Positions 2,923 to 45,989 of a stretch of DNA of 46,138 nt are shown here, piece by piece. The DNA is from an uncultured bacterium (GTDB lineage Bacteria; Bacillota; Clostridia; Christensenellales; UBA1242). The notes under the pieces were generated by a model that saw nothing but the letters and a program-made list of their open reading frames with translations, did not search any database and had not been told where the DNA came from. Made by a program: the position numbers and the translations under genes. Location: positions 1 to 46,138 of the forward strand of contig CASLXJ010000003.1 in the NCBI GenBank assembly GCA_949398915.1. Direction: 5' to 3'. Position 1 is the stretch's first letter. Each line of letters starts with the position of its first letter.

Positions 2923-3045
2923 CAAAAAATAATATAATAAAAGACAAAAATATTCTCAAAATTTTAAGCTGTATACTTGAGAATATTTTTTATTTATGTT
3001 ACAATAGAAATAGATATTTGCAATTTTAGTATTAAAAGGAATTTT

Positions 3046-6000
3046 ATGGCTACTTTTCAAGTTTCTAAGAAAAACAAACATAAGACAAATAAAAATTTAA
3101 AACTCATTTTTGGCTGGATTTTACTTGGCATTTCAACCTTTGTTTTTTTATTTTCAGCGACCAAATTACTTCCATTTCTCCAACATTTCTTTTTAGGAAT
3201 ATTGGGTGTTTTTGTTTATCCTTTGACTGTGCTTGGTTTTATTATAGCACTTGCTCTTTTGAATGATAAAAAATATGTTATGCCAAAGAAATATGCAATT
3301 TTTCTCTCGCTCAGTTTATTTTTCTTTTTATGCATAATTCAATTGATAATTATTGGCTCGCCAAATAAACTTTCTTACAGTGAATATGTTTCATTAAATT
3401 ATACCAAACAATTCACTGCTGGTGGAATGATTATCGGCTTTTTGCCTTCCAGCATGGCTGTTTTAATGGGGTTGCCAGCCACTTATATTATGCTTTCAAT
3501 AGCCTTTGCTGTATGTCTTGCATTCTTTGTTGAAGCGGTTGTTTCTCTCAGAAAAACAACAGTTGGCGAAAAGCCTATCAAGCTTCAAATTAAAGAAGAG
3601 GTGAAGACTAAACCAGTCAATCCAAGAGAAAATCAAGTTGATTTAAATCCTGTTGTTGCCAAAAACAAAGAAGAAATCAATGTTATGTATGACGGCAATA
3701 AAGAAGTTGAAGAAAAGCGAGAGCTTACTGCAAGAGAAAAACTTGGCCTTGTAGGCGGATATAAGCAAAAAGTTGGACAACCATATTATCCACAAGAGGT
3801 AAAACTTCCAGAAGATAAAAAAGAGGCTGAAGTGCCAACTAGTATGAGCATGAGAGAATATCTTTTGTCTCCACCTAAAGTTGACCTTGACAAATTTAAA
3901 CAACAGCAGGCTAGGGCACTTGCTTTGCGTGCTGAGATGAATAATTCGTTGAATGCAGCCAATAAGGTTGAGCATGAACATGAAGAAATGCCAGCAGCTG
4001 TGAATGTTTCTACCAGTGAAATAAATAGAAATATAGCAGAGCTTAAACAGGAAGAAATTAAGCCTGTTGCAACTTTTGAGCCAGAGCCTGTCAGACAGAA
4101 TACTTTGCCTACAGTGAAACCAGAGGAAATTACAAATGAGGCTGAGGATATAATTCGTTCTGTTGTTATGCAGGAAAAAATGGAACGCGAAGTTGAAACA
4201 GATAAAGATTTTATAAGTTTTGATGAGCTTGAAACTCCAGCAATAGAGCCAAAAGAAGTAGAAGAGAAAAATAATGATGTTTCAAGAGGATTTTCAAGAG
4301 AAACTTTCTCAAGAGAGGAAGATATAGAAGAGACTCCAAAGACTGATTTTTCAAGAATGGAGTCAAGGGAAGAGCTTTCTCGAAATACTCTTTCAAGAAA
4401 TGAATTTTCAAGAGAAAGTTTGTCACGAAATAATCATATTGAAGAAAATAATGATGAAGATGATGTTATAATCAAGCCTGAAGAGAAAAATGATAGGTTA
4501 AGCCGCCGAGATGCCTTTATTGAAGAGGAAAAAGAGCCAATTCGTCGCAGTGATTTTGGCGGAAACCATAATCGTCAAGAAGAAACGGCTAAACCTGTTA
4601 TGCCAACAAGGGAAAAGCCTGTTGATGAGATGGAAAGAAGAAAACGCTTTGTTACGCTTGATGATGAGCCTAAAAAGGAAACTAAAATCAAGCCTTACAA
4701 ATACAAAAGACCAGCTCTTGATCTTCTTACAACTGTTTCTGATGACCCAGCAACATTTAATCAAGATATGCCAATGAAGAGGGTGGCTCTTGAAAATGTT
4801 CTTGAAAATTTTGGTGTGCCAGCAAAGGTGCAAAATGTTGTAGTTGGGCCTACTGTAACCCGTTATGAAATCGAAATGCCAGAAGGTATTTCGGTAAAGA
4901 AAATTCTGTCACTTGATGCAGATATTGCCTATGCACTTTCTGCAAATGGTCAAATAAGAATTGAAGCGCCAATTCCAGGGCGCAGTATGGTTGGTATTGA
5001 AGTGCCAAATGCTAAAGTCGCAAAGGTGAGTGTAAAAGATATATTGCAGTCAAAAGAGTTTTCACTCAGCCCATCTCCGCTTACATTTGCTCTTGGCAAA
5101 GATATTACAGGTAATGTTAAAGTCTGCAATCTTCAAAAAATGCCACACCTTCTTGTTGCGGGAACAACTGGCTCGGGTAAAAGTGTATGCTTAAATACTA
5201 TCATTACATCACTTTTATATAAATCATCACCTGATGAGGTTAAACTTATTTTGATTGACCCTAAACAAGTCGAGCTTTCAATGTATGAAGGCTTGCCTCA
5301 CATGCTTATTCCAAAAGTTATCACAGACCCAACAAAAGCGGTCAATGCACTTCAATGGGCAATTGATGAAATGGAAAGAAGATTTAATCTTATTTCTGAA
5401 GAGCGTGTTCGAAACATTGATGAATACAACAAAATTGAAAAAGTGCTGCAAAATAAAGTTAAGAAAATGCCATTTATTGTTATTATATTTGACGAGTTTG
5501 CTGACTTTATGGCAGTGGCTAAAAATGAAATTGAAGATAAAATTCGCCGTCTTGCTGCTAAGGCGAGAGCTGCGGGTATTCACTTAATTCTTGCTACACA
5601 AAGACCTTCAACTGATGTCGTTACAGGTACATTAAAGGCAAATATGCCAGCGCGTATTGCTTTCAAGGTTGCTGGAAGAGTGGACAGTGAAGTTATTATG
5701 GGCGCGCCTGGTGCTGAAAAATTGCTCGGCTATGGTGATATGCTTTATAAACCAGCTGACTCATCTCCTCAAAGATTGCAGGGCTGCTTGATTGAAACCG
5801 GCGAGACAAAGGATATTGTCAACTTTATTACAGAAAACAATGAAGAGATTTTTGATGAGGAAGCATTTAATGCAATCAACAATCCAAATAAATCAACTGG
5901 TGGAAATGGTGCAAACGACAACAATGGCGTTGACCCACTTCTGCCTCAAGCACTGAAAATTTGTATAGACAATGGTGTCGCTTCAACTACAATGGTGCAA

Positions 6001-6153
6001 AGAAAGCTTTCAATTGGTTATCCAAGAGCAGCAAGAATTGTTGACCAAATGGAAGAACGCGGTTATATTGCAAGTGCAGAAGGCTCTAAACAAAGGGCAG
6101 TCTATATTTCAATAGAAGAGTTTTATACAATTTTTGGAGATATTTATGACTAG
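3046..6153 (+). CDS. ftsK: DNA translocase FtsK/SpoIIIE
   Basis: N-terminal TM domain, long acidic linker, MPHLLVAGTTGSGKS Walker A, IIFDEFAD Walker B, ATQRPS, gamma domain VQRKLSIGYPRAARIVD. AAGGA SD before ATG 3046. Confidence 0.97.
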   Translation: MATFQVSKKNKHKTNKNLKLIFGWILLGISTFVFLFSATKLLPFLQHFFLGILGVFVYPLTVLGFIIALALLNDKKYVMPKKYAIFLSLSLFFFLCIIQLIIIGSPNKLSYSEYVSLNYTKQFTAGGMIIGFLPSSMAVLMGLPATYIMLSIAFAVCLAFFVEAVVSLRKTTVGEKPIKLQIKEEVKTKPVNPRENQVDLNPVVAKNKEEINVMYDGNKEVEEKRELTAREKLGLVGGYKQKVGQPYYPQEVKLPEDKKEAEVPTSMSMREYLLSPPKVDLDKFKQQQARALALRAEMNNSLNAANKVEHEHEEMPAAVNVSTSEINRNIAELKQEEIKPVATFEPEPVRQNTLPTVKPEEITNEAEDIIRSVVMQEKMEREVETDKDFISFDELETPAIEPKEVEEKNNDVSRGFSRETFSREEDIEETPKTDFSRMESREELSRNTLSRNEFSRESLSRNNHIEENNDEDDVIIKPEEKNDRLSRRDAFIEEEKEPIRRSDFGGNHNRQEETAKPVMPTREKPVDEMERRKRFVTLDDEPKKETKIKPYKYKRPALDLLTTVSDDPATFNQDMPMKRVALENVLENFGVPAKVQNVVVGPTVTRYEIEMPEGISVKKILSLDADIAYALSANGQIRIEAPIPGRSMVGIEVPNAKVAKVSVKDILQSKEFSLSPSPLTFALGKDITGNVKVCNLQKMPHLLVAGTTGSGKSVCLNTIITSLLYKSSPDEVKLILIDPKQVELSMYEGLPHMLIPKVITDPTKAVNALQWAIDEMERRFNLISEERVRNIDEYNKIEKVLQNKVKKMPFIVIIFDEFADFMAVAKNEIEDKIRRLAAKARAAGIHLILATQRPSTDVVTGTLKANMPARIAFKVAGRVDSEVIMGAPGAEKLLGYGDMLYKPADSSPQRLQGCLIETGETKDIVNFITENNEEIFDEEAFNAINNPNKSTGGNGANDNNGVDPLLPQALKICIDNGVASTTMVQRKLSIGYPRAARIVDQMEERGYIASAEGSKQRAVYISIEEFYTIFGDIYD

Positions 6154-20513: not shown

Positions 20514-21668
20514 ATGATTAAAAGAATATCTGTTTTTTGTATTATGTTGTGTATACTATCTACAATATATTGTACTAGTATGCCAATGATGGCTTTTGCA
20601 GCCAATGAAGTCGACCTTACAAGCAAAAGCGCATGTCTTGTAGATTATGCCTCTGGCACAGTTTTATATGAAAAAGATGCAGATAAGCATTTGCCTATTG
20701 CAAGTATGGTAAAAATGATGACTATACTTCTCACACTTGAGGAAATTGAAGGTGGAAATCTTACCGAAGAGACTATGGTTACAACTTCCGAAAATGCTTC
20801 AGGGATGGGCGGCAGTCAGGTGTTTATTGACCCATTTGTTGAATATAGTGCTGGAGACCTTTTGAAAAGTGTAATTATTGCCTCAGCAAATGATGCTTCA
20901 GTTGCACTTGCTGAACATATAAGTGGAAGTGAAAAAACTTTTGTGCTTAGAATGAATGAAAGGGCGAAAGAGCTTGGCATGGAAAATACAAACTATTCAA
21001 ACTGCACGGGCCTTCCAGCGCCAGAACAATATTCTTGTGCAAGAGATTGTGCTACACTTTTGAAAAAAGTTACAAACTTTGATATTTATCATAAATACAG
21101 CACGATTTGGATGGATGAAATTGTTCACCCATCAGGCAGAAAGACTGGAATTGTAAATACAAACAGACTTGTAAAATATTATGATGGCTGTGATGGTGGA
21201 AAGACTGGCTCTACAAATGAAGCAGGTTGCTGTCTTTCAGCGTCAGCAAAAAGAAACAATATGAGACTAATTTCAGTCATTATTGGCGCACAAAACAGCC
21301 AAACAAGATTTAATGAATGTTCAAAACTTTTCAATTATGGTTTTGCAAACTTCGAAAACAAAGAAATTATTGGAATTGCAAATCCATTATTTACTCTTCC
21401 AGTAAACAAAGGCAAAATTGAAAATGCAGACATTTTTGCTCAAGAAGGGTTTTCAGTTGTTATGAAAAAGGGAGATAAGTCTGAGTTTGAAATTTCTTAT
21501 GAAAATCCAAACAAAGTGAACGCTCCAATGACTAAAGGCGACAGCATCGGAAAGGTTTATATCTCAAAAGATGGAAACCTTTTGAAAGAAATCAATCTTG
21601 TAATAGGTCAAGATATCGAAAAACTTTCACTTAAAGATTGTTTTGAAAAGGTTGTAGTTGGCTGGTAA
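20514..21668 (+). CDS. dacF: D-alanyl-D-alanine carboxypeptidase DacF
   Basis: Signal peptide, SMVK, MGGSQVF, SANDA, KTG; forespore-type promoter. Confidence 0.88.
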   Translation: MIKRISVFCIMLCILSTIYCTSMPMMAFAANEVDLTSKSACLVDYASGTVLYEKDADKHLPIASMVKMMTILLTLEEIEGGNLTEETMVTTSENASGMGGSQVFIDPFVEYSAGDLLKSVIIASANDASVALAEHISGSEKTFVLRMNERAKELGMENTNYSNCTGLPAPEQYSCARDCATLLKKVTNFDIYHKYSTIWMDEIVHPSGRKTGIVNTNRLVKYYDGCDGGKTGSTNEAGCCLSASAKRNNMRLISVIIGAQNSQTRFNECSKLFNYGFANFENKEIIGIANPLFTLPVNKGKIENADIFAQEGFSVVMKKGDKSEFEISYENPNKVNAPMTKGDSIGKVYISKDGNLLKEINLVIGQDIEKLSLKDCFEKVVVGW

Positions 21669-23528: not shown

Positions 23529-23681
23529 ATGCTTGAAAATAGACAAAAAAGTTATGGGAATAGATATAAACAATCAAAATTTAAAGTTAGGTTAAACAAG
23601 CTTAAACTTTTTTATGCGATAATTGGAATATTGGTAATAAGTGAAATTGTTTTAGGTGTGTTATGGGCGCTGGGGTACTAA
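23529..23681 (+). CDS. Unannotated 50-aa single-TM peptide immediately upstream of spoIVFB
   Basis: Manual translation MLENRQKSYGNRYKQSKFKVRLNKLKLFYAIIGILVISEIVLGVLWALGY*: basic N-terminus plus one hydrophobic helix; overlaps the spoIVFB start by 19 nt; SigE-like CATAAAGA 5 nt upstream. Confidence 0.65.
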   Translation: MLENRQKSYGNRYKQSKFKVRLNKLKLFYAIIGILVISEIVLGVLWALGY

Positions 23682-24517
23682 AAGAAAAGATTAGAAAGTT
23701 TCCTATTCGGCCAAGCTTTTTTCTTTTGCTTTTTTGGTTTATTTTCACTAGAAATATTTATTCATTTTTATTATTTTGCGCCGTTGTTTTTTCTCATGAA
23801 TTGGGGCATTTTTTCGTTGCACGAAAACTGGGTTATAGATTAAACTCCTTTTATATAGCACCTTATGGAATTTGTTTGAATTATAAAGAAAGTTTTTTTG
23901 ACGCAAAGGATGAAATATTTATCGCTTTTGCTGGACCTGCTGTCAATTTTATTTCGTGCGTGCTTTGCATTGCTTTGTGGTGGATTTATCCTACTTCTTT
24001 TGCCTATACACAAGAATTTGTTTTTCAGTCACTTATGCTTGGTTTGTTTAATCTTCTTCCTTGTTATCCATTGGATGGTGGAAGAATACTTGTTGGACTG
24101 CTTTCTAAGTGGCAACCAAGAAATAAAGCAATAAAATGCACAATGGTTTCAAATGTAGTTTTTGCAAGTTTTCTTTTTGTTATGTTTTTCATAAGCTTAT
24201 TCCTTGATTTTAATCCTTCTCTTTGCTTTTGTGCTGTCTTCTTAATTCTGGGGCTTTTAGATACTCAAAAAGAGTGTTGCTATCGACCCAATGTATTATA
24301 TAAAAAAAAGACTAAGAATTTTTCAAAGCCTTTCTTTTATGTTGTAAACGGGGATACGGAGCTTGGTCATGTACTTAAAAAAGTCGAAGTCAACAAATTT
24401 ACTATTTTTATCGTTCTACTGGGTGACGGCAAAATTAAAATGATTGACGAAGAAAAAATTAAGTTGATGACGCTGATGTATCCGCTGAAAACAAAATTGT
24501 CAGAAATTTTAAACTGA
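23663..24517 (+). CDS. spoIVFB: M50 intramembrane metalloprotease, SpoIVFB-like (pro-SigK processing)
   Basis: HELGH, EIFIAFAGP, NLLPCYPLDGG, degenerate CBS-like C-terminus. Confidence 0.85.
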   Translation: MGAGVLKEKIRKFPIRPSFFLLLFWFIFTRNIYSFLLFCAVVFSHELGHFFVARKLGYRLNSFYIAPYGICLNYKESFFDAKDEIFIAFAGPAVNFISCVLCIALWWIYPTSFAYTQEFVFQSLMLGLFNLLPCYPLDGGRILVGLLSKWQPRNKAIKCTMVSNVVFASFLFVMFFISLFLDFNPSLCFCAVFLILGLLDTQKECCYRPNVLYKKKTKNFSKPFFYVVNGDTELGHVLKKVEVNKFTIFIVLLGDGKIKMIDEEKIKLMTLMYPLKTKLSEILN

Positions 24518-24520
24518 CTT

Positions 24521-24973
24521 TTAATTTAAAAATGGCAAAAGCGCGTCAATATTGCTTCTTTCAAGCTCTGTCAATTTTTCGAGAATTTCATCAAGCTCAG
24601 ACCAAACGCCTTGGTGGTCGGTTTTGTCTTTATAACAAGCAAGCACGCCCATAAAGGTGCCAATGAGCATAAGCTCGGCAATGTGTCTAGTTGTCTTATC
24701 AGCCATTGTAGACATATTGATTGAGCCCCATAATCTTGCCTTTTCAAACCAATTATTGTCTTTTAAACCTTCAATTCGTTCAGCTTTGGCAAGAAGCTCG
24801 CATTCTTTTTCAAGAAGGAGATATTTGTCTTCTTCGCTTGCAAGCTCTCTTTTTAAGTTTTCATCTTTAATCTTAGGAATGATATCCTCGATTGACTGAA
24901 TTGCTGTGCGAATGTTTTGATAAACAGCATTTAAATATTCAGTCATAAGCTCTTTATTTCTTTCAATTTCCAT
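24521..24973 (-). CDS. Hypothetical helical-bundle protein, probably spore-associated
   Basis: Strong SD AGGAGG, all-helical pattern, HIAELMLIG motif, upstream GAATA-N17-CACAATT. Confidence 0.75.
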   Translation of the reverse strand: MEIERNKELMTEYLNAVYQNIRTAIQSIEDIIPKIKDENLKRELASEEDKYLLLEKECELLAKAERIEGLKDNNWFEKARLWGSINMSTMADKTTRHIAELMLIGTFMGVLACYKDKTDHQGVWSELDEILEKLTELERSNIDALLPFLN

Positions 24974-24988
24974 AATTTCCTCCTATAA

Positions 24989-25050
24989 AATTGTGTGTAG
25001 TTTCTTTTAATTTATTCAAATGTATACAATTGAAGCTTTTGCAAAAAATA
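24989..25050. promoter_or_regulatory. Back-to-back putative SigG/SigF-type promoters
   Basis: Minus strand GAATA(25017-25013)-N17-CACAATT(24995-24989); plus strand GTATA(25022-25026)-N17-AAAAATA(25044-25050). Confidence 0.5.
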
Positions 25051-25055
25051 AAAAC

Positions 25056-26465
25056 ATGAAGAAACTGACAAAAATTTTATTGATTTTATTTGTTTTGGTG
25101 ACTATTCCAGCTCTTGTTATGGGAAAATCTATTTTTAAAGGAATTTCTCCGACCGATAAGGGCTTCTCTTTCAATTTTGATACGCAGGGCATCATAGCAA
25201 TCGTGCTAGCTGCAATTTCATTAGCGCTTGGCACCTATCTTTATATAAGGTTTATCATTTCTCAACCGGTCGATAAAGCTATTTTTTTCTCCTCTTTGCC
25301 TCTAGTTGTGCTTTATGGATTTAGCCTTTTTATGTTGGCTGAAATTACTGCATTTAATAATCCACTTGCCATTTCTATAAGAAATATTTTAAATCTTTCG
25401 ACAGAAAATTTGTATAATACTGTGCTTTGGGCAATACTTTTGACACTAGTTTTTATTGGGCTGTTGTTTTTAAATTGCTTTGTTTTTTGCAAGCCTATAG
25501 CCAAAGTAGAGCGTATTGTTTCAAGGCTTGGTGATGGAAAGGTAAAAGATGAAAACCTAAAAATTGGCGGAGTAAAACAGTTTAATTCAATCGAACATAG
25601 TTTAAATAAGATAAACAACAACTATCGCAGTAAAGATAGGTCTCTTAAAACTATAAACTTAGAAGCGCAAAAGTTTATACCAAAGCAATTTTTTAAGTTT
25701 TTAGGAAAGAGTAATATTCAAGAATTGGAGCTTGGCAACCAAGTGAAAAAAGTTGCATCAAGCATGCTTGTAAAACTTATTGGCCTTGAAAGCAAGGGAA
25801 ATATGACGCTTGAAGAAAATTTCAATTTTGTAAATGCCTATATCCATGTTATTTCGCCTTTGATAAGAAAATTTGGAGGATTTATTGATAAATATAATGG
25901 TGAAGGCGTAACAGCGGTGTTTGGTCAAGCAGAGGACGCAATTGATTGTTCTCATGCTATTATCAGAGCAATAAATGTAAAAAACAGGCAAAATAAAAGT
26001 CTTCCAAATGTTGAACAAAGAATATCTATTATGACAAGTGAAGTTATTTTTGGGATTGTGGGTGAAGAAGAACATAAAATGCCAACAATAATTTCAAATG
26101 TGACTGGTGTGCTTGAAAAATTGGATGAAGTTTGTCGAATAATGAATGCTAAGATTGTATTTACTAAGTCGTCACTTGATAGTTTGCCATTAAATTATAA
26201 ATTCTTGTATAGACATATTGGAAAACTTTCTGTAAATGAAAACAAAGAAGTCATTATATTTGAAGATTTTGAAATTCTTCCAAAAGATATTTCGGCTCAG
26301 CTTATTAAATCAAAGGCATACTTTGAAAGAGGTGTTATTTTATATGAAGAGGGAAGCATTGAAAACGCGCTTGAAATGTTTTCGCAAAGTTTGAAAATTT
26401 GTCCTCGAGATAAGGGCTGCTATATTTATTATAATCGCGCAAAGGAAAAAGTTGAAGCTCAATAA
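25056..26465 (+). CDS. 4-TM + HAMP + degenerate class III nucleotide cyclase domain + TPR-like C-terminus
   Basis: Four hydrophobic helices; HAMP-like KPIAKVERIVSRLGDG...FNSIEHSLNKI; cyclase-family KFIPKQFFKFLGK, ENFNFVNAY, GGFIDKYNGEG, FGIVGEE; catalytic positions substituted. Confidence 0.8.
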   Translation: MKKLTKILLILFVLVTIPALVMGKSIFKGISPTDKGFSFNFDTQGIIAIVLAAISLALGTYLYIRFIISQPVDKAIFFSSLPLVVLYGFSLFMLAEITAFNNPLAISIRNILNLSTENLYNTVLWAILLTLVFIGLLFLNCFVFCKPIAKVERIVSRLGDGKVKDENLKIGGVKQFNSIEHSLNKINNNYRSKDRSLKTINLEAQKFIPKQFFKFLGKSNIQELELGNQVKKVASSMLVKLIGLESKGNMTLEENFNFVNAYIHVISPLIRKFGGFIDKYNGEGVTAVFGQAEDAIDCSHAIIRAINVKNRQNKSLPNVEQRISIMTSEVIFGIVGEEEHKMPTIISNVTGVLEKLDEVCRIMNAKIVFTKSSLDSLPLNYKFLYRHIGKLSVNENKEVIIFEDFEILPKDISAQLIKSKAYFERGVILYEEGSIENALEMFSQSLKICPRDKGCYIYYNRAKEKVEAQ

Positions 26466-26477
26466 TTTGCTATTTGC

Positions 26478-26507
26478 TTGACAAGTTTGATAGGTAAGTG
26501 CTAAAAT
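26478..26507 (+). promoter_or_regulatory. SigA promoter, leaderless
   Basis: TTGACA-N18-TAAAAT with extended TG; ATG 6 nt downstream. Confidence 0.65.
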
Positions 26508-26513
26508 TTTTAT

Positions 26514-27038
26514 ATGGCATTTCGTAGAAGAGAAAAAAGCACAATAGAATGTCCAAGGTGCAGTCAAAAAAGTTTGATTGGCATGGAAAGCTGTCCAGGC
26601 TGTGGGCTTGTTTTTTCACGCATGGAAATTGCAACGAATAAAGATGCAAAAAGAAAAATACACAGAGGCGACAGAGATTTCATTGTTTACACATCAAAAT
26701 TGCCAAGTGATGTAAAATTTATTAAACTGCTTCTTTTTACAATCTTTTTAGGGCTGTTTGGCGGTCATTGTTTTTATGTTGGTAGATACTGGCGGGCAGG
26801 ACTTTTGCTTACAAATTCAATAGTGCTTGTTTTGTGCACCATATTTAATGCCGCAATTGTTCAACTTCAAGAAGGAATGTTTATTGCCGCTGTTGCGACG
26901 GTCTGTGGTTTAATAATGTTTGTTTGGGTTTATGATATATTTGCTGTCATATTAAAGAAGTTTAAAGTGCCAGTTGCAATTGACCTTGAAAGCGGAATTG
27001 ATGATGATAAAGTTGAAAGAAACGAGGAAGAAAAATGA
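26514..27038 (+). CDS. Zinc-ribbon plus TM2-domain membrane protein
   Basis: CPRC...CPGC, then [17 protein letters not shown]2 signature; ATGA overlap with mnmA. Confidence 0.8.
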
Positions 27039-29566: not shown

Positions 29567-29632
29567 AAAATATATTAAAAAATATTTGTTTTATTAAAAT
29601 ATTTATTGTATACTTTTGGCATTGGAGGAAAA

Positions 29633-30520
29633 ATGGAAGATTGTATTTTTTGCAAGATAATCAGAGGAGAAATTCCATCATATAAAATATATGAGGACAA
29701 TTATACATATTCATTTTTAGATATAAGTAACGACGGCAATGGTCATATTTTGGTAGTGCCTAAAAAGCATTGTGAGAATGTGCTTGATTGTGAAGAGGGG
29801 CAGCTTGCACATGTTTTAGAAACTGTGAAAAAGATTGGCAATCACCTTGTAAACAATTGTGGGTTTAATGGAATAAACATATTGAATGCCAGTGGAAAAG
29901 CTGCTGAGCAAAGTGTATTCCATCTTCATTTTCATATTTTACCTAGAAAAGATGGTGATGGTCTATCAGTATTTCCAAAGCTTGAAAAGAATGATAAAAC
30001 TCTTGAACAGATGTGCCAGCTGCTGAAAATTGAAAATGAGAAAGAAGAAGAGAAAGTTGTTGAAAACAGCTCAAATTGTAAAAATATAGTTTTATATACA
30101 GACGGAGCTTGTTCTGGAAATCCAGGAATGGGGGGCTGGGGTGCTATATTATCCTATAATGGAAAAGAAAAAGAGCTTTCTGATGGTGAGGAAATGACAA
30201 CCAACAACAGAATGGAGCTGATAGCTGTTATAAAAGGCCTAGAAGCGATTAAAGAAAGTTGCAAGGTTGATATTTACAGTGATTCAGCCTATGTTGTCAA
30301 TGCTTTCCTTCAAGATTGGATATCAAAATGGAAGAGTAATGGCTGGAAGACAACAAAAGGTGAAGTGCTTAATTTAGATTTATGGAAAAGACTGACTGAC
30401 TTACTTGACAAGCATGAAGTTGTTTGGCATAAAGTAAAGGGGCATGCAGACAATGCTTTAAATAATCGTTGCGACGCACTTGCAAGAGGAGAAATAGAAA
30501 AATTAAAAAAGACTAAGTAA
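29633..30520 (+). CDS. rnhA: HIT-family nucleotide hydrolase fused to ribonuclease HI
   Basis: N half: DCIFCKI, GHILVVPKKH, QSVFHLHFHILPR. C half: YTDGACSGNPG, TNNRMEL, YSDSAY, WHKVKGHA, NNRCDALA. One frame; SD GGAGG before ATG 29633. Confidence 0.9.
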   Translation: MEDCIFCKIIRGEIPSYKIYEDNYTYSFLDISNDGNGHILVVPKKHCENVLDCEEGQLAHVLETVKKIGNHLVNNCGFNGINILNASGKAAEQSVFHLHFHILPRKDGDGLSVFPKLEKNDKTLEQMCQLLKIENEKEEEKVVENSSNCKNIVLYTDGACSGNPGMGGWGAILSYNGKEKELSDGEEMTTNNRMELIAVIKGLEAIKESCKVDIYSDSAYVVNAFLQDWISKWKSNGWKTTKGEVLNLDLWKRLTDLLDKHEVVWHKVKGHADNALNNRCDALARGEIEKLKKTK

Positions 30521-33243: not shown

Positions 33244-34182
33244 TTAAATAAACAGCACAATGGCTACTGAAATTAAAGCGGCAAGGCAAGCATGAGTAAA
33301 CTTTTGCAAGCAAAATAGCGTAATTGGCATTTTAAGTCTTGTAAGCATTGAAATAGACTGCAAAATTGTTGAAATACCACCAAAGCTTATTACAAAAGTT
33401 GCAGCTGTAATAGCCCATTTGCTATTAAAATATTTTGATATATCTTGGCAACCTTTAGTTATTTCGACCATACCTTCAAGAATGCTTGCAGCTTTAGGTG
33501 GAAAAAGGTTGAAAATCGGAGATAGGGAGGTGATAACAACAAAGAAAATTGCTATTATTGTGCCAACAATCAACATACTAATGGCAGAATCTAAAACTAT
33601 TGAAGTTATGTCAAAACTGCTTTTTTCTTTGTTTTCGCCTTTATTCTCTTCAATTATTTCAATAGAATCATTCTCTTTTGCTTTAAGATTTCTATATAAT
33701 AGTCCATTTAAGAAGGCACCAATTATGTGAGATGAAAAGATTATATAACCATATAAAGGATTTGCAAGCATTGAAATTCCCACTGCGCCTATAATAAACA
33801 TTGGGCCCGAGGTGGAGCAAAAACTGCACATTTTGAAGGCTTCGCTTTTTTTAATTTTTCCATGTTCATAAAGCTCGGCAGTCATCTTTGCGCCTACTGG
33901 ATAACCTGAAATTATGCTTGTAAGAAAAACGAGAGAAGAAGAGGAAGGTGTTTTAAAAAGTTTTCTGCAAGGCTTTTCCATGAATTTAGTAAACTTGTCC
34001 ATGTTGCCAATAGAAGTTAAAATTTTAACAAAAAAAATGAAGGGTAAAACACTTGGCAACACATTAAAAGCCCAGGCAGATATGCCATTTAAAGTGGCTT
34101 CAATATATACTGATGGAAAAATAACCATGTTTATTAAGATATAGATTATAAAAAAAGATAATAAAGTGTTATATTTTTTCAT
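33244..34182 (-). CDS. ylbJ: Sporulation integral membrane protein YlbJ-like
   Basis: VLPSVLPF, SGYPVGAK, SGPMFIIGAVG, EITKG, ISFGG; multi-TM. Confidence 0.85.
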   Translation of the reverse strand: MKKYNTLLSFFIIYILINMVIFPSVYIEATLNGISAWAFNVLPSVLPFIFFVKILTSIGNMDKFTKFMEKPCRKLFKTPSSSSLVFLTSIISGYPVGAKMTAELYEHGKIKKSEAFKMCSFCSTSGPMFIIGAVGISMLANPLYGYIIFSSHIIGAFLNGLLYRNLKAKENDSIEIIEENKGENKEKSSFDITSIVLDSAISMLIVGTIIAIFFVVITSLSPIFNLFPPKAASILEGMVEITKGCQDISKYFNSKWAITAATFVISFGGISTILQSISMLTRLKMPITLFCLQKFTHACLAALISVAIVLFI

Positions 34183-45104: not shown

Positions 45105-45221
45105 ATTGGAAGAATAAGGTGGCAAAGCTGTTGCAATTCAATATTTAAAATATGCAAAATTTATAAAAATGTTATAAGTTTTCACTTAAAAATGCAGTTA
45201 TTTTTACATAGACAAGCAAGT

Positions 45222-45244
45222 TTCGACATAATTCGTCATATATA
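45222..45244. promoter_or_regulatory. Tandem Spo0A boxes overlapping a SigE/SigK-type -10 upstream of sigK
   Basis: TTCGACA (45222-45228) and TTCGTCA (45232-45238) read TGNCGAA on the minus strand, 10 bp apart; CATATATT at 45237-45244. Confidence 0.6.
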
Positions 45245-45275
45245 TTGCTATCGAGTTTATCGAGGGCGGTGTTTG

Positions 45276-45989
45276 ATGATTTATGAGAGTTTTGCTAAAT
45301 TTATGGGACAAATTTGCTGTTTCACTTCTTTTGTAAGTTCAATTCAAGGTTTTCCAAAGCCTCTCACTAAAGAAGAAGAGCTTGTCTGGCTTGATAGGCT
45401 TGAAAAGGGTGACAAAGAAGCCAGAGATGTGCTTATCAACCACAATTTAAGGCTTGTTGCGCATATAGTCAAGAAATACAACAATTCGCTTGAAGCAGAT
45501 GACTTAATTTCTGTCGGAACAATTGGTTTAATAAAAGCAGTTGACAGCTTTAATGGCGATAAAGGTGTGCTTCTTTCAACTTATGCTTCTCGCTGTATTG
45601 AAAATGAAATTCTAATGCTTATCCGTTCAAATAAAAAACATAAAGATACCATTTCTTTGAATACAATGCTTGCACCTAAAAATGATAGTGATGATTTGGA
45701 ATTGTCAAACCTTATTCCTGCTGAAAGCGAAGAAGATGTCTTTGAGCAGGTTGAGGTTGGATGTCTTATGATGGATATTTTTAAGATTATGGAAAATAAG
45801 CTTTCTGACATGGAAAAGGAAATATTAAAATATCGTTATGGACTATGCAATTATCCAGTAAAGACACAAAAAGAAGTGGCAGATATTTTTGGTATTTCAA
45901 GGTCATACATTTCAAGAATTGAGAACAAAATATTGAAAATTTTGCAAAAAAATATTTCAAAAGATGATAAAAAAGAAATTGAAAATTAA
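45276..45989 (+). CDS. sigK: Pro-SigK sporulation sigma factor, uninterrupted
   Basis: Short pro-sequence then FPKPL, HNLRLVAHIVKKY, STYASRCIENEILM, TQKEVA...ISRSYISRIE. Confidence 0.93.
   Translation: MIYESFAKFMGQICCFTSFVSSIQGFPKPLTKEEELVWLDRLEKGDKEARDVLINHNLRLVAHIVKKYNNSLEADDLISVGTIGLIKAVDSFNGDKGVLLSTYASRCIENEILMLIRSNKKHKDTISLNTMLAPKNDSDDLELSNLIPAESEEDVFEQVEVGCLMMDIFKIMENKLSDMEKEILKYRYGLCNYPVKTQKEVADIFGISRSYISRIENKILKILQKNISKDDKKEIEN

Follow-up and report, generated by a model that had tools for sequence, protein, structure and literature searches.

The gene and its encoded protein

The window analysed here is the whole stretch of 46,138 nucleotides of contig CASLXJ010000003.1 (assembly GCA_949398915.1), which comes from an uncultured bacterium of the Clostridia (Christensenellales, UBA1242). 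The genome to which it belongs has 1.37 Mb in 99 contigs and is 74.6% complete. On the + strand, at 25056..26465, the window carries an intact open reading frame (ORF), TAA stop included, which encodes a membrane pseudo-cyclase of 469 amino acids (P0001). An earlier note, made from the letters of the window, had described this protein as a membrane pseudo-cyclase receptor with a forespore-type leaderless promoter, and had proposed it as a candidate component of spore signalling. The intact ORF and the motifs quoted there were confirmed in our analysis: MLVKLIGLE lies at amino acids 237-245, DKYNGEG at 278-284, and SNVTGVLEKL at 347-356.

We assign the ATG at 25056 as the real start, because the family consensus, MKKSTK, begins there; the relatives begin with MK(K/T)STK. 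The alternative upstream ATG at 25020, which is used in 481-amino-acid database entries, falls inside the conserved promoter described below.

The AlphaFold2 model of the protein, built on the family alignment, has a mean predicted local distance difference test (pLDDT) value of 88.4. In this model the N-terminal membrane module (amino acids 1-146; 25056..25493, +) has four transmembrane (TM) helices with short outside loops. The hydrophobic helices are modelled at amino acids 3-21, 43-69, 72-96, and 120 to about 146, and the last one continues to about 160. We infer an N-in/C-in topology. Conserved intramembrane residues in the family alignment include F41, G59, P82, Y87, G88, N121, and W125.

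The next segment (amino acids 147-198; 25494..25649, +) is a HAMP-like helix-loop-helix, delimited by the model and by conserved residues. The modelled helix-loop-helix spans amino acids 141-198, with the conserved Pro147 and a GDG turn, and the conserved residues of the region are P147, E152, R157, L158, D160, G161, and G171...N187. Pfam HAMP matched 2 of 83 family members and HAMP_2 matched 3 of 83, while the window protein had no match even at E ≤ 10. The Atlas neighbours of this region were HAMP clusters at 0.92, which is a feature-level lead only. These results point weakly to HAMP, and the hairpin is called HAMP-like only.

A linker (amino acids 199-228; 25650..25739, +; FIPKQF.KFLGK...ELELGNQV) precedes the cyclase domain and was delimited by its conservation. 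It is the slowest-evolving segment, with p-distances of 0.17-0.24 against 0.31-0.50 in the other segments, and in 14 of 23 pairs it has the lowest dN (nonsynonymous divergence) of any segment. It may be a cyclase-transducer element. Two short helices at amino acids 210-225 lead into the cyclase domain in the model. The class III (IIIb-type) cyclase-homology domain (CHD; amino acids 229-405; 25740..26270, +) was recognised by sequence, fold, and alignment. The C-terminal tail (amino acids 406-469; 26271..26462, +) is modelled as three helices, at amino acids 410-432, 435-448, and 453-468. Pfam TPR_1 matched amino acids 420-452 of this tail as a single repeat at 24.1 bits, under the cut-off of 27.8. 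TPR_2 matched 44 of 83 relatives, and a TPR tail is also found in canonical outgroup cyclases. The earlier note had listed four TM helices, a HAMP domain, a cyclase fold, and a TPR-like tail; the four helices and the fold stand, and the HAMP and TPR parts are kept as HAMP-like and TPR-like, the HAMP profiles having no match in the protein and the TPR profile a sub-threshold one. The search of the protein against NCBIfam gave nothing beyond noise, and no germinant-receptor family domain was found in it by the Pfam and NCBIfam scans.

The Pfam cyclase model, Guanylate_cyc (PF00211), had no match in the window protein even at E ≤ 10, and the 23 of 83 family members that it matched do not include this protein. 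The phmmer search against the PDB found the photoactivated adenylyl cyclase OaPAC (E 2.4e-7). A profile of the 83 relatives found the same protein at E 1.6e-13 and aligned K240 with D156, K279 with K196, and E283 with D200. The best Foldseek matches of the model were class III cyclases, with probability 1.00 and, for 4yus, E 1.3e-11. For Cya2 (2w01_B) the TMt was 0.74 and the root mean square deviation 2.9 Å over 193 columns, and for CyaB, CyaC, and Rv1900c the TMt was 0.70-0.77. The domain has the fold of class III cyclases.

The catalytic hexad of the window protein is K240-K279-E283-T344-G351-K355. The codons were verified, on the + strand, at 25773-25775, 25890-25892, 25902-25904, 26085-26087, 26106-26108, and 26118-26120, respectively. 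As a control on the alignment, the same six columns read D-K-D-T-N-R in 101 of 123 outgroup representatives. This is presumably the canonical hexad of Thr-type (IIIb) cyclases, for which the Lys...Thr pair would be typical. In the eight outgroup rows of the tree described below, N is found in 100% and R in 88%. The two metal-binding aspartates of an active cyclase are thus replaced in the window protein, by Lys at the first (Asp1) and by Glu at the second (Asp2), and the transition-state Asn and Arg (N-x-x-x-R) are replaced by G351 and K355. The substrate-specifying pair, which for ATP is Lys with Asp or Thr, is kept as K279 and T344. Among 121 close relatives, the Lys is present in 109 and the Thr in 104.

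The structural comparison for which the earlier note had asked gave a class III fold, and in the sequence alignments the catalytic equivalents are replaced at K240, E283, G351, and K355. Its account of altered motifs was right about the loss of Asp1, Asn, and Arg and about the retained substrate Lys. The second aspartate, which it had called degenerate, is a conservative Glu.

We then consider the possibility of rescue by a second cyclase chain, which the earlier note had already doubted. A search of 41 genomes of the genus found no further CHD gene: PF00211 had at most one match per genome, always the family gene. It had no match in those genomes of the genus whose family protein has Lys at Asp1 (hereafter K-state; those with Asp are D-state), and the family profile had at most one match per genome in 37 genomes. 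In the window genome, at its 74.6% completeness, PF00211 had no match at E ≤ 1. Rescue in a heterodimer is therefore unlikely, and both half-sites of a homodimer of the window protein would be dead.

The same fold is shared with the class IIIb cyclases OaPAC and bPAC (4yus/5x4t, 5mbh), CyaC of Spirulina (1wc0), Cya2 (2w01), and CyaB of P. aeruginosa (3r5g), with Foldseek E values of 1e-11 to 1e-8 and, for CyaC and CyaB, TMt of 0.70-0.77. Sequence homology to these enzymes is detectable, and a helical linker likewise precedes their domain. The window protein differs from them in that it lacks Asp1, Asn, and Arg, has Glu for Asp2, and combines the domain with a four-TM and HAMP-like input and a TPR-like tail. 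Outside the family, the proteins closest to it are HAMP-CHD-TPR cyclases from Paenibacillus and various other bacteria (L099-L123; P0147-P0269), which align to amino acids ~107-464 at 26-33% identity. However, these have the canonical hexad in 101 of 123 cases, other and often much longer N-terminal sensors, and hosts with large genomes.

Degenerate half-sites are known from the mammalian adenylyl cyclase C1/C2 pair and from soluble guanylate cyclase alpha/beta, and degenerate GGDEF/EAL domains serve as receptor domains. What these systems have in common with the window protein is a nucleotide-cyclase fold put to use as a non-catalytic regulatory or ligand site. Catalytic-domain structures of soluble guanylate cyclase are among the fold matches of the window protein. 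Heterodimeric cyclases pair a degenerate half-site with an active one, whereas the homodimer considered here would have no active half-site.

Family tree, selection and distribution

We aligned 121 close relatives and computed a tree from the CHD and TPR segments, leaving out the six catalytic columns; it comprises 139 rows of the family and 8 outgroup rows. The outgroups have DKDTNR, and DKDTNK is the prevailing pattern both in the basal rows of the family and in a clade of 50 rows. In the sister clade of 80 rows (support 98), Lys, rarely Arg, occupies Asp1 in 74. The starred subclade that holds the window protein has K or R at Asp1 in 39 of 39 rows, and no reversion to D was seen within the 80-row clade. 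By definition of that state, all 69 K-state rows have K240. The tree places the change from Asp1 to Lys as a single event, fixed in a large clade.

Both states occur inside the genus of the window genome, where 23 rows comprise 8 K, 14 D (2 duplicates), and 1 N. Sister species of this genus keep the near-canonical D-K-D-T-N-K, and the family is therefore not uniformly dead. The earlier note had expected the orthologues to conserve the degenerate residues. This is true of the Lys at Asp1, which is fixed in its clade, and untrue of the sister species, which is half of the case that the note had named against itself. The D-state orthologues (for example P0059, P0072, L011, and L016) are 43-50% identical to the window protein and have its length, architecture, promoter, and neighbourhood. 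They differ from it in that both metal aspartates are kept, Asn is mostly kept (59%), only the change from Arg to Lys departs from the canonical hexad, and Pfam Guanylate_cyc recognises them.

Within the K-state clade, E, D, N, S, G, or R is found at position 283 and S, K, G, E, T, P, A, or V at position 351. Nine active-site positions (T236, L237, F238, C239, D283, L286, G328, D348, and V349) are conserved to at least 86% in D-state proteins; in K-state proteins the same nine fall below 0.6 or carry an altered residue. The core residues G275, F276, D278, K279, Y280, F289, N310, F332, Y385, R386, G389, and E403 are conserved in both states. The ratio of nonsynonymous to synonymous divergence (dN/dS, Nei-Gojobori) of the CHD was 0.04-0.11: the K-state pairs L004-L005 and window-L004 gave 0.05 and 0.10, respectively, and D-state pairs 0.04, at a dS at or near saturation; many other pairs were saturated in dS. 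The ratio of CHD to TM p-distance at matched divergence was 0.64 in the D-state (500 pairs) and 0.95 in the K-state (1076 pairs). This pattern indicates that the constraint on the active site was released after the loss of Asp1, with the whole domain under strong purifying selection.

Simple decay of the K-state copy, which the earlier note had named as an outcome that would refute it, was rejected on the dN/dS values and the fixed Lys. On sequence evidence, the K-state protein is a pseudo-enzyme and not a pseudogene.

Of the 36 other species of the genus, 34 matched the family profile, with one copy per genome, whereas the profile had no match at E ≤ 1e-10 in 24 genomes of the order, each from a different other family. 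The host family, known from gut Clostridia metagenome-assembled genomes of ~1 Mb, was sampled with 151 genomes of ~0.6-1.6 Mb from 58 genera. A match was found in 57 of these genomes, belonging to 21 of the 58 genera, and was not found in the other 37. Full-length matches numbered 33, three of them with one internal stop. Genera g50 and g55 have diverged or broken copies with 1-3 internal stops. About 17 matches cover the N-terminal 146-240 amino acids only (TM or TM-HAMP), in ORFs of ~220-260 amino acids. Among these short forms are TM-HAMP-only orthologues of ~230-245 amino acids in genera g64 and g26 (L040, L041, L042); TM-HAMP-only or reduced rows are also G177, G099, G143, G202, and G061. 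The TM-HAMP-only orthologues retain the same promoter and the same divergent neighbour. Their existence suggests that the primary function lies in the membrane module, with the CHD-TPR part as a modulatory output.

Proteins with cNMP-binding domains are the usual receptors of cyclic AMP. A cNMP_binding match was obtained in only 5 of the 41 genus genomes; none was obtained in the window genome or in several D-state genomes that are at least 99% complete. Even D-state proteins may thus not signal through a classical pathway of the Crp type.

Promoter, sporulation background and proposed role

A conserved, presumably leaderless promoter lies at 25022..25055 on the + strand, directly upstream of the pseudo-cyclase gene. 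It consists of GTATA (25022-25026), a 17-nucleotide spacer, AAAAATA (25044-25050), and 5 nucleotides before the ATG at 25056, and no Shine-Dalgarno sequence was found before this ATG. Of 54 unique orthologous upstream regions, 42 share the exact architecture. In these 42, a −35-like element, T-G-N-A-T-A-C-A, lies at −35 to −28, with G−34, A−32, and T−31 each in 41 and a further A in 38. The −10-like element, C/A-A-A-A-A-T-A, lies at −12 to −6, and its A−11, T−7, and A−6 are present in 42 of 42. The motif can be written as GnATA-17-CA[AC]A[AC]TA, in which the 17-nucleotide spacer and the exact 5-nucleotide distance to the ATG are conserved. The five bases after the −10 element are variable, and position −1 is a pyrimidine (C or T) in 42 of 42.

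Three further orthologues keep both boxes and have, before the ATG, an inserted leader of ~14 nucleotides with GAGG. A leader with a Shine-Dalgarno sequence between the boxes and the ATG is expected if the boxes act as the promoter of an mRNA that normally has no leader. Other genera show the same architecture, and it also precedes the TM-HAMP-only genes. The leaderless promoter of the earlier note thus proved to be strongly conserved, and it is not confined to this gene: its architecture is common to a yetF-like gene, and its −10 element to gpr.

The match to sigma-A is poor, with 2 of 6 bases in the −10 element and 3 of 6 in the −35 element by our own count, and T is found at the third −10 position in 0 of 42 orthologues. 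The sigma-G consensus of B. subtilis is GnATR-17/18-CAnnnTA, and the family promoter presumably fits it. In the window genome, GTATA-16/17-CAAAATA-N4/5-ATG is also found before a YetF/DUF421 gene and two small membrane proteins, and gpr shares the −10 element only, as CAAAATA-N5-ATG. Related CA..TA-N4-6-ATG layouts precede the genes of SpoIIP, a SpoVB-like flippase, a PdaB/YlxY-like deacetylase, and a class A penicillin-binding protein, among 12 annotated and hand-picked of 61 ORF-linked pattern matches. According to PMC3789822, the −10 boxes of the mother-cell sigma-E/K promoters of C. difficile are CATA-type. Our literature search for promoter consensus strings in IUPAC code returned nothing relevant. 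A scan of the genome with a two-block position weight matrix of the promoter gave 71 matches, many of them inside genes, and is too unspecific to define a regulon.

Leaderless-type genes, with a CA..TA heptamer 4-6 nucleotides before the start and without a Shine-Dalgarno sequence, were noted at C1:20797, C2:43555, C2:53883, and C9:19258 (−) of the genome contigs. Further starts of this type lie at C21:1833 (−) and C52:3681, and at 2185 and 11641 (−) of the window. The set includes YetF/DUF421, SpoIIP, the SpoVB-like flippase, GPR, the PdaB/YlxY-like deacetylase, and the class A penicillin-binding protein. In this reduced genome, sporulation genes may generally be transcribed as leaderless mRNAs, from promoters of the sporulation type.

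Contigs from two mouse-gut RNA-library runs in Logan (X10 and X13) cover 25234-25571, 24967-25150, and 26054-26329, and the end of one X10 contig coincides with 24973, where the neighbouring gene starts. These contigs come without strand, ends, or level, DNA carry-over is possible, and they were not used as evidence for expression or for the transcription start.

The window genome has a sporulation background. Spo0A was found at 216 bits, above the cut-off; genes like those of sigma-G, sigma-F, and sigma-E, and genes of SigK, GPR, and SpoVAD, are present. Within the genus, 40 of 41 genomes had SpoIVA over the cut-off; within the host family, 147 of 151 did, and these represent 58 of 58 genera. 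The alpha/beta-type small acid-soluble proteins (PF00269) and SpoVT (TIGR02851) were not found in the incomplete window genome, from which no conclusion is drawn.

Taken as a whole, with a probability of about 0.62, the following reading is proposed. The protein would descend from a class IIIb adenylate cyclase and would no longer make cyclic AMP in this lineage. It would act as a dimeric membrane-anchored transducer, composed of the four-TM module, the HAMP-like hairpin, the linker, the CHD, and the TPR-like tail, with a dead cyclase and a link to the forespore. We regard the pseudo-cyclase receptor as real and the spore link as probable; the gene is likely expressed in the forespore from its conserved promoter.

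In the proposed mechanism, a forespore sigma factor of the sigma-F/G type would transcribe a leaderless mRNA, and the protein would sit in the inner membrane of the forespore or spore with its short loops toward the intermembrane or cortex side. A signal from the membrane, or within it, would pass through the HAMP-like hairpin and the linker to the dead CHD dimer, and the output would be conformational rather than enzymatic. One possible output is nucleotide binding at the retained Lys279/Thr344 pocket, with Lys240 standing in for the metal charge. Another is the recruitment of a partner by the CHD or TPR surface, alone or together with nucleotide binding. The TM-HAMP module would be the apparent core of the system. 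Nucleotide binding and a role in dormancy or germination, both suggested in the earlier note, are hypothetical.

Several points weigh against this reading. The assignment to sigma-F/G is indirect, as it is drawn from the consensus given above and from the resemblance to two genes of the window genome. The CA..TA-N4-6-ATG layout also precedes PAP2 and UvrC, and the degenerate pattern of −10 element plus ATG had 288 matches in place of the ~420 expected on our own base-composition estimate, so that it is not enriched. The X13 contig at 24967-25150 crosses the proposed start and misfits a strictly leaderless transcript of the + strand, a mismatch that an opposite-strand or DNA origin would resolve. 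The earlier note had asked for a check of co-occurrence with sporulation genes. All 58 genera are SpoIVA-positive, but the gene is in only 21 of them, and it would thus be an accessory and not a core part of sporulation. On the enzymatic side, Glu at Asp2 and Lys at Arg are conservative and K279/T344 is kept, so weak or altered catalysis is possible. The D-state orthologues may be active enzymes, in which case the family is not intrinsically non-catalytic. The rise of the CHD/TM ratio means that some relaxation is real, and the gene is broken or truncated in several genera.

A rather unlikely alternative gives the protein a more specific task. In it, a receptor of the forespore inner membrane would use the fixed Lys in place of the metal, the active site would have become a metal-independent sensor of ATP or another nucleotide, and this sensor would control dormancy or germination. 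Together with the TM-HAMP module, and possibly with the ferritin-like protein encoded next to it, it would report the state of the membrane or of energy. Such a receptor would be the first component of the endospore programme derived from a class III cyclase.

It is unlikely that the protein is a sensor outside the spore, that is, a vegetative sensor of envelope or membrane stress, paired with the YciF-like neighbour, whose AT-rich promoter resembles sporulation promoters by chance. The conserved neighbour has a YciF/Dps-like stress-protein fold, the distribution of the gene does not track that of SpoIVA (21 against 58 of 58 genera), and the mouse-gut RNA-library contigs cover parts of the gene, although these are uninformative on the cell type. 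However, such a sensor fits badly with the poor sigma-A match, with the base-by-base conservation of the promoter across genera, and with the same architecture before the yetF-like gene and the same −10 element before gpr.

We consider it quite improbable that the protein is still an enzyme. Lys240 would then replace the metal or neutralise the triphosphate, Glu283 would hold a metal, and Lys355 would replace Arg, giving a slow or conditional product. The substrate pair kept in most members (109 and 104 of 121), the invariance of Lys240 in its clade without drift, the conservative nature of Glu and Lys, and the CHD dN/dS of 0.05-0.10 would agree with this. But the other catalytic positions, 283 and 351, drift freely in the K-state clade, the strand before Asp1 (amino acids 236-239) is unconserved, and the loop at 243-250 is gapped. 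The Pfam cyclase model fails on K-state proteins, and in 36 of the 41 genus genomes no receptor with a cNMP-binding domain was detected. To our knowledge, no class III cyclase is active without Asp1.

Least probable is that the gene is on its way out, a slowly decaying K-state remnant without specific function in a reduced genome under relaxed selection: the small genomes of the host family (~0.7-1.6 Mb), the 37 of 58 genera in which the gene was not found, the copies with 1-3 stops or with the N-terminal 200-240 amino acids only in some genera, and the rise of the CHD/TM rate ratio from 0.64 to 0.95 after the loss of Asp1 would fit, but the frame is intact in the examined K-state orthologues down to ~50% identity, dN/dS is 0.05-0.10 with dS saturated or nearly so, the Lys at position 240 is fixed, conservation extends to the promoter and its exact 5-nucleotide spacing to the ATG, and a genome of ~1 Mb would rarely retain a functionless gene of 1.4 kb.

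YetF/DUF421 and GerA-type proteins are small multi-pass proteins of the spore inner membrane that are made in the forespore. Their likeness to the pseudo-cyclase is a functional analogy only, with no relation in sequence or fold; the yetF-like gene of the window genome has the same leaderless promoter architecture. Among the listed papers and abstracts on endospore formation, our searches found no adenylate cyclase, cyclase-derived, or pseudo-cyclase protein, and at the same level they found no bacterial family of homodimeric pseudo-cyclase receptors.

If the promoter reading is true, spore-formers with genomes of ~1 Mb have preserved a dead cyclase as the basis of a dedicated membrane sensor. 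This would point to an unknown signalling step by which spores develop or revive in uncultured Clostridia that are abundant in the gut. Apart from any link to spores, the family offers a clean natural experiment in the evolution of pseudo-enzymes, from DKDTNK through the pseudo-enzyme to TM-HAMP-only forms. Orthologues of the active-like, dead, and domain-less kinds occur within a single genus or family behind one shared promoter, so that their functions are directly comparable. If the nucleotide-sensor alternative is true, this series would show the conversion of a second-messenger enzyme into a receptor scaffold.

Neighbouring genes and other features of the window

Divergent to the pseudo-cyclase gene, at 24521..24973 on the − strand, lies the gene of a ferritin-like protein of 150 amino acids (P0270) with a YciF/Dps-like fold. 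Of the 45 family genomes with both genes, 36 have them less than 1 kb apart. This adjacency persists where all other neighbours differ, and also beside the TM-HAMP-only forms. P0270 was found in 37 of 58 host-family genera, a wider distribution than that of the cyclase-like gene. It is also more conserved, with 73-98% identity among its 120 closest database relatives. In genus g50, it is a second, diverged copy of P0270 that adjoins the cyclase-like gene.

The predicted fold of P0270 is a five-helix ferritin-like bundle (pLDDT 91.6), whose similarity to YciF/Dps is weak (E ~0.01, TM 0.75). P0270 matched no Pfam family, DUF3216 and DUF2383 matched weakly in some relatives, and no sequence match was found in the PDB. 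The prediction of a complex between amino acids 141-469 of the pseudo-cyclase and P0270 gave a score of 0.00, without controls, and speaks neither for nor against binding.

The gene at 23663..24517 (+) encodes an M50 site-2 protease of 284 amino acids (Pfam PF02163, E 2.8e-18), which is a reasonable candidate for SpoIVFB; the only other M50 gene found in the window genome is RseP-like. SpoIVFB is a site-2 protease of the M50 type that has a CBS domain at its C-terminus and processes pro-sigma-K. In the window protease, no CBS match was found with Pfam, and no equivalog with NCBIfam. Its adjacency to the pseudo-cyclase gene is only genus-deep; in other genera the M50 gene lies 2-4.5 kb off or outside the neighbourhood. 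The position beside spoIVFB, to which the earlier note had given weight, therefore does not hold beyond the genus.

Other sporulation-related genes are also found in the window. They encode an FtsK/SpoIIIE-like translocase (2977-6150, +), a DacB/DacF-like carboxypeptidase preceded by GCATA-17-AAAACTA (20514-21668, +), a YlbJ-like sporulation membrane protein (33247-34182, −), and SigK with an N-terminal extension of ~30 amino acids, possibly a pro-sequence (45192-45986, +). The PdaB/YlxY-like deacetylase is also encoded in the window.

Directly 3′ of the pseudo-cyclase gene, at 26514-27038 (+), lies the gene of a membrane protein of 174 amino acids with a zinc ribbon and a TM2-like part. A strong sigma-A-like promoter, TTGACA-18-TAAAAT with TG, is found after the pseudo-cyclase gene at 26478-26507. 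The stop of the zinc-ribbon gene overlaps the start of mnmA at 27035, and this order is kept in the genus (L024-L029). Further downstream, the ORF at 29606-30520 (+) encodes 304 amino acids, in which a HIT/HinT-like domain (amino acids 14-114) is fused to RNase HI (amino acids 158-303). In L025-L027 and L029, the same region consists of two ORFs of ~131-135 and ~145-148 amino acids.

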